A DNA stretch of 31,811 bases, taken from NCBI GenBank assembly GCA_016185875.1, contig JACPMS010000042.1:1-31811 (forward strand), given 5' to 3'. Each line of letters starts with the position of its first letter. Position 1 is the first letter of the stretch. The stretch comes from Candidatus Woesearchaeota archaeon. Its GTDB lineage: Archaea > Nanobdellota > Nanobdellia > Woesearchaeales > GW2011-AR4. The position numbers and the translations under genes were made by a program. Shown here piece by piece: positions 21,505 through 30,974 of the stretch. The notes beneath the pieces were generated by a model. That model saw only the letters and a list, made by a program, of their open reading frames with translations. It did not search any database and was not told where the DNA came from.

Positions 21505-21626
21505 GCCGCGGTAGGATAACCAGGTATTCCGGGAGCTTCAGACCCTCCTGCTCGAAAGAGCTTCTGGGTTCAAATTTCAGGAAGACTAGTTCAGTCCTTT
21601 CTTGGGTGAGACTCCCAGCCGCGGCG
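21505..21626 (+). tRNA. Type II tRNA, anticodon CAG in the canonical register (UCA in an alternative register), G73, 38-nt intron at 59/60 (21575-21612)
   Basis: Acceptor GCCGCGG/CCGCGGC, D arm GGAT-AACCAGGTA-TTCC, variable arm GCTC-GAAA-GAGC. Clean BHB (TTCA/TGAG helix, AAT and ACT bulges) whose splicing gives CTGGG-TTCAAAT-CCCAG. Mature length 84 nt. Confidence 0.85.
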
Positions 21627-21639
21627 CATAATTATATTT

Positions 21640-21792
21640 TTATTCTTCAGTTTCAGGAAAAAATGTTCCAGTAAATCCGCATTTATTGCATCTGAATGCA
21701 GGATTTGCAAATTCCCGTGCAATATTTGCCACAGACCAATCATTTGTTATATCCATACTCTTGCATTTCGGACAAATTCTCTTTCTTACCAT
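21640..21792 (-). CDS. Small zinc-ribbon protein (50 aa)
   Basis: Manual translation MVRKRICPKCKSMDITNDWSVANIAREFANPAFRCNKCGFTGTFFPETEE. Starts 4 nt after the gltX stop. Confidence 0.75.
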   Translation of the reverse strand: MVRKRICPKCKSMDITNDWSVANIAREFANPAFRCNKCGFTGTFFPETEE

Positions 21793-21796
21793 TTTG

Positions 21797-23485
21797 TCAA
21801 TCGTGCGTATACCAAAACATCAGTTTGTCACTTTTTTTATTGTCCAATCTGCAAAACCCAAACCTGCTGAACTGTACCACATCTCCAACCTTCAGATTTT
21901 TAACCATTGACTCTGCCAATCCTTTTTTGATTTCTTTATCTGGCATCAAAACTTCTATTTTTACTAAATCTTTCTGCACAGGCAGCCAATGGATTATTTT
22001 GTCTCCGCTTTTTTTGTATTTTTCATACTCCAATGAATCAAAAACAAGGTTGTTCTTGGCCTTCTTGAAATTCAGGCAATCCATTAGTCTAGTCAATTTT
22101 CCATCTTTAAATTCCTTGAAATCTTTTTCCGCAACATAAAACCTGTCTTTTGTCCTGAATTTTCTTGAGCCTCTTTCTTTGTGCTCGGGATGGAGTTTAA
22201 GTTCAGCAGTTTGCTCTGGGGCATTTTCTATTTTGATTTCCTTTGGGCTTTCAACAAAAAAATACCTGTTGCACTTTGAGTCAAGCATCCTTCTGTTATG
22301 CACTATCAAATCATCCCATGTAAGCACTGATTCTGTCTTAGTCAAGCCTGTTGAAAGCACGAATTCCTTAATGGCTTCTGGCAAAAATCCTCTCCTCCTT
22401 AATGCCACCAAGGTTGTCAATGAAGGATCATCCCATCCGATAAGCTGCTTTTTCTGCACCTTTTCCCTTATAACCCTTCCAGAGCTTTCCACGCCCTCAA
22501 GATTAAACCTGGCAAATTCATAGATTTTGGTTTCCCTAAAGCCAGCCATTGTCTGAATCAGCCTTTGCAATTCATTTCTCAATTCAAACTCCTTGCTTCT
22601 TAGCCTATGCGTAACCCCTTCAATGCCGTCCATTATTGCGCTTTCAAAGTCATAATTTGGCCAAACCCTGTACTTTTTCTTCTTTCTTGGGTGCGGCATG
22701 TCAACAATCCTGAATATGACTGGGTCTCTAAGGGTTGTATTCTGGCTCTGCATGTGCCCTTTAAGCCTCAGGACATATTTTCCAGCCCTTGCCTTGAACA
22801 TATCATGCCATTTAGCCAAGGTATTTTCAGCTTGAGTGTACCTGCACTGGCACTCTATGCCATTTTTCCTGTTTTCCTTTATTGTCTCTTGCGGGCAGGA
22901 GCATACATAGGCATGATGCTCATTTATTATTTTCTCAGCATATTTGTAGAACTCTTCCATGAAGTCTGAAGCATAGTCTATTTTGTCGGGCTTGATGCCC
23001 AGCCATTCATAATTTTCCATGTGGATTTTGTAGAACTCTTCATCTGCAAGCTCCGGGTTGGTGTCTTCAAATCTCAAGTAGAATGTTCCATTATGCCTCT
23101 TTGCAAGCTCGCAGTTTACAATTATTGCCTTTGCATGCCCAATATGAGGATATTTGCTCGGCTCTGGCGGGAACGCTGTTACAACCTTTTGCCCCTCTCT
23201 TATGCCAAGAAACCCAAAAATGTCCTTTTCTTTTGTTTCCTCTTTCTTTTCCAGCAGCTCTGGAGCCAATTCCTGAAGCTTCTTCCCTTGTTTTTCCAAT
23301 GAAAGAGTATTAACTTCTTTGACTATCTTGGAAATTTCCCTGCTAATCTCCTGTGCTTTTTCCCTTAAGCCAGGGTTTTCAGCCAAAACCTTGCCTGTAA
23401 CTGCCCCTTGATTTGCCTTGCCTTTGTATTTGATGGCATTCTGCAAGGCATACTTTCTTATAGTAATTTTGAGGCTTTCATCCAT
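21797..23485 (-). CDS. gltX: Glutamyl-tRNA synthetase, archaeal type
   Basis: FPPEPSKYPHIGH (HIGH motif), LRFEDTNP, LRDPVIFR, VWPNYDF, VTHRLRSKEF, VQFSRFGF. Confidence 0.95.
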   Translation of the reverse strand: MDESLKITIRKYALQNAIKYKGKANQGAVTGKVLAENPGLREKAQEISREISKIVKEVNTLSLEKQGKKLQELAPELLEKKEETKEKDIFGFLGIREGQKVVTAFPPEPSKYPHIGHAKAIIVNCELAKRHNGTFYLRFEDTNPELADEEFYKIHMENYEWLGIKPDKIDYASDFMEEFYKYAEKIINEHHAYVCSCPQETIKENRKNGIECQCRYTQAENTLAKWHDMFKARAGKYVLRLKGHMQSQNTTLRDPVIFRIVDMPHPRKKKKYRVWPNYDFESAIMDGIEGVTHRLRSKEFELRNELQRLIQTMAGFRETKIYEFARFNLEGVESSGRVIREKVQKKQLIGWDDPSLTTLVALRRRGFLPEAIKEFVLSTGLTKTESVLTWDDLIVHNRRMLDSKCNRYFFVESPKEIKIENAPEQTAELKLHPEHKERGSRKFRTKDRFYVAEKDFKEFKDGKLTRLMDCLNFKKAKNNLVFDSLEYEKYKKSGDKIIHWLPVQKDLVKIEVLMPDKEIKKGLAESMVKNLKVGDVVQFSRFGFCRLDNKKSDKLMFWYTHD

Positions 23486-29674: not shown

Positions 29675-29675
29675 T

Positions 29676-30671
29676 TTATGGGTAAGTATAGCTCAATATC
29701 AATTCCTTATTTGAGTTTCTTAGGTATAAGGTATCACCATCATCATTCCAAATACATGGGCTGTATTTGTTCCAATAAAGTTTTGTTGCTGTATTAGTGC
29801 CACTGCCACTGTACAAACTGAATATCGCTCCACTTTCTAATTCATAGCTTTGGAATCTGTAACTGTGTATGGAATCATCACTCATATTCCACCCCGTCAT
29901 GTCACATGAGAAAGAGCAGCTATTCTTAAATATTACATATTCGCCATTTGGAGTTTGACAATCATTTCCCTCTGCATTATAATTAAAATCCAAAATTGAA
30001 ATACACTTATCATCACATATATTTTGCTGCGGCTGCGTCGAATTTGTCTGATTTTGGCTTGTTGAGTCTAAGCATTGCCCGTTTTCACATCCATACTCAC
30101 ATATGTTATGGTACAGCCATAAATTGCCATCTTCATTGCATTCCATCAGTACATCACTCCTGCAGCTGAAATCGCCTGGGTTGCATAGGTTAATGCAGCT
30201 GTCATTCATGCAGCCCCTGTCGCAACGCTCAGCAAGCGTGAAGGAGCAGTTGGAAAGCCTGTAGCTCCTCTCGAATTTGGATATGCATTTCCAGCCCTCT
30301 TCGCAAGCTGGCAGATTTTCTTGAATTGGATAATCTGATATTCCTTCTGCAGAAATTTTGCATTTTGAGAGACAATTGAAGTCACTGTAAGTTTCATTTA
30401 CCCACTGCCCTGTCTTCAAATCGCACTCCATATAAGCAAAGTCATTCTTGCATTTCTCTTCTGTTTGGCAGCATTTTTCCTCGCAGAACTTCTCGCTTGG
30501 GTATTTGCATGCCCTTAAAATTTCAGTTGCAGCATGCCCAGTAATTGCTGGATTTTTGTCTGAATTCATTTCTTCGGTTATCTTTTCTGAACATCCATTT
30601 ATAATGAGCATCAAAATTGGCAAAGCTATGATCAAATAGATGAATACCTTAGATTTGTCAAGATTATTCAA
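29676..30671 (-). CDS. Probable lipoprotein with Cys-rich repeats and C-terminal lamin-tail (LTD) domain
   Basis: True start is near TTG 30671 (or GTG 30689), since the longer track ORF reads through the tRNA-Ser gene. Lipobox-like LIINGC, many Cys clusters, EYVIFKN...DMTGW...IWNDDGDTLYLRN. Confidence 0.75.
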   Translation of the reverse strand: MNNLDKSKVFIYLIIALPILMLIINGCSEKITEEMNSDKNPAITGHAATEILRACKYPSEKFCEEKCCQTEEKCKNDFAYMECDLKTGQWVNETYSDFNCLSKCKISAEGISDYPIQENLPACEEGWKCISKFERSYRLSNCSFTLAERCDRGCMNDSCINLCNPGDFSCRSDVLMECNEDGNLWLYHNICEYGCENGQCLDSTSQNQTNSTQPQQNICDDKCISILDFNYNAEGNDCQTPNGEYVIFKNSCSFSCDMTGWNMSDDSIHSYRFQSYELESGAIFSLYSGSGTNTATKLYWNKYSPCIWNDDGDTLYLRNSNKELILSYTYP

Positions 30672-30701
30672 TATAGCTATTATTACCACCCCTTTTTTGA
30701 A

Positions 30702-30974
30702 CGCCAAGGCCCGGATTACTTGGAATTGTTTAACGCCATAGCTCGAATTCTGCGAATTCGCGGACCTCGTGCATAGCCCGAGGTTTCGAGACCGCCGCAC
30801 TACCAGATTATGCGACAGTGGCACAACAATTCCAAGTTCCCAAAAACCTCTCAGTTTTTGCGATGAACCGAGAAGCCCTTGCGGGCAGCAGTTCTCTTGA
30901 AAAATTCGAGACTGCCGCAATATTCTGATTGTGAGGCTCGTTCCTCGCCAACTGCCAGATTCTGCCACCTTGGC
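30702..30974 (-). tRNA. tRNA-Ser(CGA) with three introns (20/21 at 30953-30922; 37/38 at 30904-30894; 57/58 at 30863-30718)
   Basis: Acceptor GCCAAGG/CCTTGGC, G73, anticodon stem GCAGT/ACTGC, variable arm GCCC-GCAA-GGGC, T stem CTCGG/CCGGG. Splicing gives an 84-nt cloverleaf with a TTCAAAT loop. Confidence 0.88.
30734..30822 (-). ncRNA. T-armless tRNA-Ser(CGA)-like element nested in the T-loop intron
   Basis: 31 of the first 38 nt match the spliced host tRNA. Enclosed by a perfect 12-bp stem CTTGGAATTGTT/AACAATTCCAAG. Confidence 0.7.

Follow-up and report, generated by a model that had tools for sequence, protein, structure and literature searches.

The DNA analysed here (the window) is a stretch of 31,811 nucleotides (nt) corresponding to contig C14 (JACPMS010000042.1) of a metagenome-assembled genome of Candidatus Woesearchaeota, a DPANN archaeon; the assembly comprises 770 kb in 95 contigs, is 63% complete and has a G+C content of 38%. 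It carries an archaeal histone-like open reading frame (ORF), a thermosome, FtsZ and ELP3, consistent with an archaeon, together with four interrupted tRNA genes: tRNA(CAG) (one interruption), tRNA-Ala(GGC) (three), tRNA-Met(CAU) (one) and tRNA-Ser(CGA) (three), giving a total of eight. ARAGORN run at default settings on the whole window returned no tRNA, and an Rfam search matched tRNA-Met alone, with an insertion or intron apparent in its anticodon loop. Intergenic G+C-rich stretches were parsed by hand, and each candidate junction was then scored with a script for the bulge-helix-bulge (BHB) motif, the rule being a central helix of 4 base pairs (bp) between two 3-nt bulges, each of them cut after its second nucleotide, with outer and inner helices on the flanks. 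This rule reproduces the canonical tRNA-Met intron. Where equivalent shifts of a junction gave the same product, the boundary was set by intronless orthologues.

Seven of the eight junctions passed the BHB test, against a background pass rate of 2.2-3.0% for all junction pairs at the same loci, and these seven sit exactly where excision restores the cloverleaf. All four spliced products were recognised by ARAGORN (Table 1). Introns occur preferentially in the D-loop, at 37/38, at 43/44 and above all at 59/60, with the outer BHB helix being provided by the anticodon stem at 37/38 and by the T-stem at 59/60. Most have the strict core of 4 bp and 3 nt; three are relaxed. An earlier sequence-only reading of this DNA had proposed four tRNA genes with at least eight introns: the parsing places eight interruptions at all of the positions it named, and a BHB motif accompanies every one of them except the insertion at Ser 57/58, which scores zero and does not qualify as a clear BHB intron.

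These data make it very probable that the window holds four functional tRNA genes, belonging to a tRNA set in which nearly every gene is broken up by archaeal introns spliced by proteins. Going by the established archaeal pathway, each pre-tRNA would fold such that every exon-intron pair forms a BHB (a 4-bp helix between two 3-nt bulges); EndA, as a single subunit resembling that of M. jannaschii and presumably homotetrameric, would cut after the second nucleotide of each bulge, and RtcB would join the exons. The cassette at Ser 57/58 carries a whole tRNA-Ser in relatives and a truncated one here, and for this insertion both removal from the RNA and inactivation of the outer gene are considered below.

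Table 1 Interrupted tRNA genes of the window, their introns and the Ser cassette, with the loci of a long intron family elsewhere in the same genome (G000).
Feature	Coordinates	Strand	Basis and remarks
tRNA(CAG), class II, Leu by anticodon, discriminator G73	21505..21626	+	spliced product is tRNA-Leu(cag) in ARAGORN
CAG intron, 38 nt, 59/60 (T-loop), strict hBHBh'	21575..21612	+	central TTCA:TGAG 4/4, outer 5 bp (T-stem), inner 9 bp
tRNA-Ala(GGC), G3:U70 pair	23964..24128	+	spliced product is tRNA-Ala(ggc) in ARAGORN; mature 74 nt
Ala intron 1, 37 nt, D-loop (19/20), relaxed BHB	23984..24020	+	central 3/4, inner 9 bp, no outer helix
Ala intron 2, 21 nt, 43/44, strict BHB	24045..24065	+	central AGGG:CCCT 4/4, outer 4 bp, inner 5 bp
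Ala intron 3, 33 nt, 59/60	24082..24114	+	central 3/4, outer 5 bp (T-stem), inner 11 bp
tRNA-Met(CAU), elongator-type	25902..26026	+	Rfam RF00005, 53.6 bits; found by ARAGORN with intron option; spliced product is tRNA-Met(cat)
Met intron, 50 nt, canonical 37/38, hBH type	25941..25990	+	central CTCA:TGGG 4/4, outer is anticodon stem, no adjacent inner helix
tRNA-Ser(CGA), outer gene, 273 nt giving an 84-nt product	30702..30974	-	spliced product is tRNA-Ser(cga) in ARAGORN
Ser D-loop intron, 32 nt, BHB	30922..30953	-	central TCTG:CAGA 4/4, outer 2 bp, inner 4 bp
Ser 37/38 mini-intron, 11 nt	30894..30904	-	central 3/4, outer 8 bp
Cassette, 146 nt, between T-loop positions 57 and 58, no BHB	30718..30863	-	BHB score 0/0/0
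Hairpin 1 of cassette, TCGCAAAAAC..GTTTTTGGGA	30838..30863	-	folding; sequence conserved across families
5' strand of 13-bp stem, ACTTGGAATTGTT, presents cargo	30825..30837	-	perfect complement of 30718-30730
3' strand of 13-bp stem, AACAATTCCAAGT, ends directly before A58	30718..30730	-	complementarity and folding
Truncated nested tRNA-Ser(CGA), inner copy	30734..30822	-	compared with intact inner gene of L163 and with G006
Long-intron family loci	G000:C6:1090-1209, C17:~5120-5254, C35:2509-2600, C78:15528-15608, C88:~5645-5720		

Orthologues of the Ala and Ser genes were compared across relatives. The boundary of the Ala D-loop intron was set by the L023 orthologue, whose intronless D-arm (GTTAAACCTGGTATAATG) is identical to the proposed spliced D-arm. 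Orthologues L024 and L048 also have an intron at 43/44, the end of which pairs with AGGG; in L024 its inner helix is different in sequence and still complementary. All six close orthologues (L022, L023, L024, L026, L042 and L048) have an intron at 59/60, ending in TGAA or TGCA plus NN in five of them and in TGAG plus NN in L042, and these ends pair with the T-loop TTCA. In L032 the T-arm intron lies at 53/54 instead of 59/60. The tRNA-Ala orthologues of sister species adjoin the same GluRS gene and have one to three introns, at 19/20, 37/38, 43/44, 53/54 or 59/60; their exons are conserved, the intron ends keep the BHB rule, and the inner helices, among those checked, differ in sequence yet remain complementary. 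Intron sets of the tRNA-Ser orthologues likewise differ between sister species, with one to four interruptions per orthologue: the D-loop intron is missing in G017 and G001, the 37/38 site holds an 11-nt insert in G017 and none in G001, and fewer interruptions are found in L007, L010 and L129. Because sister species differ at the same gene, intron gain and loss appear to be fast.

The sequence-only reading had also called for a comparison of introns across tRNAs with transposition in mind, and this comparison revealed sequence families that recur at different positions. One is a family of long introns (78-118 nt) with ends AACCTTTTG..AAAAAGGTT and internal sequence in common, which occupies the D-loop of tRNA-Gly(GCC) and the T-loops of tRNAs on contigs C17, C35 and C78. 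Its conserved ends read AACCTTTTG.GAAAAGC ... CAGAAAAAGGTT and the common inner segment GAAAACCATGCAATGCGGGATAT.AAATCCCGCGGAACGATGG; a similar free-standing copy lies beside tRNA-Arg(UCU), outside any recognisable tRNA, and an Rfam search of the long introns gave no known family. A second motif, GCGAGCATGC, is common to Ala intron 3, the first intron of Gly(GCC) and the 59/60 intron of tRNA-Ser in G001. Finally, a palindromic hairpin module (ATGCGAGTGAGCGAAGCGAACTCGCTCACA) taken from the intron of a tRNA on contig C4 (query L146:60-105) is repeated within genomes of the genus, up to 13 times in a single one. The presence of the same families at different positions points to transposition-like spread, as judged from their sequences.

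Repeated hairpin modules of this kind are also what would be expected if the interrupted loci were dead relics bearing mobile hairpin insertions, with the working tRNA genes lying in the unassembled 37% of the genome. A census bears on this. A relaxed search of the own assembly for an acceptor stem plus T-arm, followed by BHB-guided splicing, recovered ~22 recognisable tRNA loci, of which ~20 are interrupted; those beyond the window carry BHB motifs too. Val(TAC) and Gly(CCC) are the only uninterrupted tRNA genes in the 770 kb. Gly(GCC) has a 118-nt D-loop intron together with an 11-nt intron, Gln(CUG) has three introns, Asp and Ile have two each, and in Ser(GCU) an intron sits at 35/36, within the anticodon. 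No intronless copy of any of the four window tRNAs was found in the assembly, although the sequence-only reading had allowed that such copies might exist elsewhere. One locus is in a different state: at G000:C62:1980-2110, a tRNA-Arg(CCU) is present over its 5' two-thirds only, and where the T-stem and the 3' acceptor strand should follow there is an inverted copy of the gene's own 5' end (acceptor strand and D-arm). This locus is rearranged or dead, and still scores 32 bits in Rfam.

The relic explanation can thus draw on the incompleteness of the genome and on at least one rearranged locus. Against it, intact exons yield canonical cloverleaves once joined, the geometry of the interruptions is that of BHBs, orthologues have kept their exons while their introns differ, both EndA and RtcB have been retained, and only two uninterrupted genes were found in so much sequence. 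Furthermore, Rfam matches no more than 14-21 tRNAs in relatives with 90-100% completeness, including one at 100% whose genome is closed in a single contig. It is therefore very improbable that the loci are relics, and functional interrupted genes remain the favoured reading. Since these near-complete relatives also look short of tRNAs, the tRNA-poor appearance is a property of the whole order. In the own genome ARAGORN finds four tRNAs and Rfam seven. The proposals that this lineage has undergone an intron expansion, and that standard annotation misses its tRNAs, were thus both borne out, the former also by the differing introns of the Ala and Ser orthologues in sister species.

To place these introns in the context of the splicing machinery, EndA and RtcB were searched for. 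RtcB, whose presence the sequence-only reading had suggested checking, is complete in the own genome (G000:C41:11132-12445). The EndA gene is truncated where contig C10 ends, leaving the N-terminal 127 residues, which are 86% identical to a complete 211-residue EndA of the genus. PF01974 gave exactly one match per genome in 35 of the 40 relatives searched, and the EndA proteins of relatives are ~200 residues long, with one N domain and one catalytic domain. Starting at residue 55 and running through to the C-terminus, the 211-residue protein aligns gap-free with M. jannaschii EndA (1A79), has Tyr, His and Lys at the catalytic positions and is without the six-residue insert that precedes the catalytic histidine in the N. 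equitans alpha subunit. Its only addition is a Lys/Glu-rich N-terminal extension of ~40 residues. None of the broad-specificity architectures, (alpha-beta)2, epsilon2 or an L1/L2 loop insertion, was seen in it. Because EndA is of the plain M. jannaschii-like type, a single subunit that lacks any insertion compared with 1A79, the earlier expectation that non-canonical introns require an endonuclease of relaxed specificity is not supported.

Several observations weigh against the reading of functional, spliced genes. The same EndA resembles the type held to need strict motifs, which sits badly with the relaxed BHBs: the Ala D-loop intron has no outer helix, and the Met and Ser 37/38 introns have no inner helix. 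The sequencing runs containing the locus are DNA runs only (groundwater metagenomes), so that splicing is inferred. With the assembly 63% complete, intronless copies could sit in the unassembled part. Finally, the insertion at Ser 57/58 forms none of the four central BHB pairs.

This last insertion is a different object from the seven BHB introns. When folded, it forms two hairpins that stack on each other and make a three-way junction with the T-stem, and the loop of the second stem houses the inner tRNA-Ser(CGA). The inner copy retains its 5' acceptor strand, its D-arm, the 5' side of the anticodon arm and the greater part of its own intron; the ~43 nt that are gone run from the 3' strand of its anticodon stem through the variable arm and the T-arm. 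A Logan contig piece matches positions 30739-30813 of this copy exactly. The nested arrangement is co-linear, not permuted.

Cassettes of the same type were also found in G006, G010, G016, G032, G261, L162 and L163. The inner tRNA is complete in G006, G010 and G032, the last of these belonging to a different family in which the outer and inner copies are both Ser(UGA), and in the close relative L163, where it carries its own 37/38 intron. In G016 the outer gene has decayed and the inner gene is intact, and G261 and L162 have a cargo-less twin hairpin of 51 nt. Metagenome contigs and further families of the order also contain the hairpin 1 pattern. Across families, hairpin 1 and the junctions GGTTCA/TC, GRGAACT and RAGT/AATCC (slashes marking the breaks) are conserved, and the second stem co-varies. 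Matches to the cassette pattern with one mismatch elsewhere in the genus, in L138 and in L161 proved to be coding sequence, and were set aside as false positives.

A separate nested arrangement was observed in another family at L140 (G261:C44, ~17600-17900), where a tRNA-Ser(UGA) has a complete second tRNA-Ser(UGA) inside it. There, an insertion with a long stem separates the variable arm from the T-stem and holds the inner tRNA in its loop, and the same gene also has the cargo-less 51-nt twin hairpin at 57/58.

Attempts to fit a BHB at 57/58 through equivalent shifts, nested or two-step excision, mirror geometry or bulges of 2-4 nt all failed, as did a model with two adjacent introns in which A58-A59 derive from the conserved GGGAAC. 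No arrangement tried, by script or by hand, yields TTCAAAT together with a 4-bp central helix. Four-intron solutions for the Ser gene from a combinatorial search were rejected for their abnormal T-loops, and the segment H2 (30734-30822) was rejected as the true middle of the gene, being without a T-arm. Worked by hand, the 5' junction does allow a proper 3-nt bulge (CA/U), flanked by a GGUU:AACU helix on one side and by hairpin 1 on the other; no such bulge is possible at the 3' junction.

Two explanations of this insertion are about equally likely: a genuine intron of a new type, and a DNA cassette that killed the outer gene. Under the latter, a small DNA-level cassette, consisting of the twin hairpin and in some cases a spare tRNA-Ser, was inserted into the sequence encoding the T-loop and disabled the outer gene, which amounts to gene replacement in place; since the spare has been truncated here, no working tRNA-Ser(CGA) would be left and UCG would be read by tRNA-Ser(UGA). 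We give this full scenario somewhat less than an even chance. The junction without a BHB, unlike the other seven, fits it, as do the plain M. jannaschii-like EndA, the decayed outer and intact inner gene of G016, and the existence of the twin hairpin without cargo. Nesting is moreover recursive: the GCCACTG tRNA that is the inner copy in G006 itself hosts another copy in G010. In addition, Logan contigs from two runs of the same groundwater study join 30717 to 30864; the letters in between are not known, and if there is nothing between, the join fits a tRNA-Ser of related organisms without exactly these 146 nt.

Other evidence pulls in the opposite direction. The outer gene has a perfect cloverleaf and two BHB introns both in the own genome and in L163, and it is intact in G006, G010 and G032; the outer genes of the own genome and of G006 show paired changes relative to each other in the stems of the variable arm and the anticodon, and in the own genome it is the inner copy that is broken. 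Conservation of hairpin 1 and of the junctions across families, with co-variation of the second stem, looks like selection on a processing signal, and a proper bulge is possible at the 5' junction. These features would suit the twin-hairpin element (GGTTCA/TC.CAAAAA..TTTTTGRGA-ACTY...RAGT/AATCC) as a new, non-BHB class of archaeal tRNA intron, able to house an entire second tRNA gene in the distal loop and yet be removed from a functional outer pre-tRNA. We put this forward tentatively, as a possibility on the doubtful side. If it were true, a plain alpha4-like EndA, or another enzyme, would recognise a three-way junction and not a bulge-helix-bulge.

Further observations concern decoding and neighbouring ORFs. 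Discriminator G73 on class II tRNAs with CAG and GAG anticodons, together with a class II tRNA with the anticodon GAC, prompted the consideration of codon reassignment. This was rejected and decoding taken as standard: in alignments, CTN codons of this genome fall opposite L/I/F/V/M and its GTY codons opposite V/I. The GAC tRNA lies outside the window (G000:C4:1832-1986; L146/L149) and is close kin of the window tRNA(CAG), with a long variable arm, G73 and the anticodon loop TTGACAC, whose anticodon is that of a Val codon reader; the same loop is found in G014, G021 and G051, and TTGATAC (GAT) in G043. The whole tRNA-Ser gene is spanned by an ORF for a Lamin-tail-domain protein on the minus strand (window 29676-30998), the Pfam match of which covers residues 335-439 only. 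A spurious extension most likely accounts for its first ~100 codons, and gene callers could annotate over the tRNA in this way. At window 1531-3594, also on the minus strand, is an ELP3-like radical-SAM/GNAT protein of 687 residues with an ELP3 N domain (4-76) and a radical-SAM match (355-414); the ~280 residues between them are without a Pfam match and may be an insertion.

The consequences reach beyond this locus. The tRNA sets of Woesearchaeota, and probably of other DPANN archaea, are grossly under-called, which distorts estimates of completeness as well as inferences on codon usage and host dependence. Intron turnover, common intron modules and the tRNA-carrying cassette provide material on how archaeal tRNA introns arise and move. 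The data also suggest that strict BHB motifs at any position suffice for a plain EndA. Overall, the gene structure is of a known kind; what stands out in this genome is its extreme density, an endonuclease that is plainer than expected, and one interruption that is unexplained.

Among known systems, tRNA genes with several introns at non-canonical positions were reportedly described in Thermoproteales by Sugahara et al. in 2008 and Fujishima et al. in 2010. Up to 87% of tRNA genes are disrupted in that order (PMC3239211). As in Thermoproteales, there are several BHB introns per gene, located in the D-loop, the variable region and the T-loop (59/60); transposition is suggested by the occurrence of intron families at more than one position, and the genes escape standard finders. 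By contrast, Thermoproteales have an (alpha-beta)2 EndA with a Crenarchaea-specific loop, whereas the present organism, a mesophilic DPANN archaeon from groundwater whose genome is ~1.2 Mb in size, has one M. jannaschii-like subunit that is free of insertions relative to 1A79. ARMAN-2 (Ca. Micrarchaeum), which has disrupted tRNAs and an epsilon2 EndA (Fujishima et al. 2011, PMC3239211), is likewise a DPANN lineage, and shares introns at 59/60 and 53/54 and the occurrence of two introns in one T-arm. It differs in its three-unit enzyme of ~390 residues with a specific loop, compared with the 211-residue, two-domain EndA here, and the share of interrupted genes is much higher in the present genome.

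The passages of Kaneta et al. 2018 (PMC5829648) drawn on here report that tRNA gene disruption is markedly increased in DPANN archaea with an alpha4-type EndA, in a survey that included Ca. Woesearchaeota archaeon RBG_13_36_6, and that incomplete tRNA sets call for manual curation, as tRNAscan-SE cannot complete them. The sequence-only reading had allowed that the pattern might already be catalogued for the lineage; this holds to the extent of that one Woesearchaeota genome, while the same passages give no gene-level catalogue for Woesearchaeota. The present genome belongs to the same phylum-level group and has the same enzyme class. However, disruption is tied in those passages to an 'L3' insertion, whereas the EndA of this genus is gap-free relative to 1A79, and a tRNA set that is ~90% interrupted alongside an insertion-free EndA fits badly with the idea, as stated there, that the loop and tRNA disruption co-evolved (PMC5829648). 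For a tRNA nested within a tRNA intron, the literature search found no description. The closest analogue of the tRNA-in-T-loop cassette is a box C/D small RNA nested in the intron of an archaeal tRNA-Trp (PMC4090602), also a functional RNA gene inside a tRNA intron. In tRNA-Trp, however, a guide RNA is carried by a canonical 37/38 BHB intron, whereas here a whole tRNA of the same isoacceptor is carried by an insertion that has no BHB.

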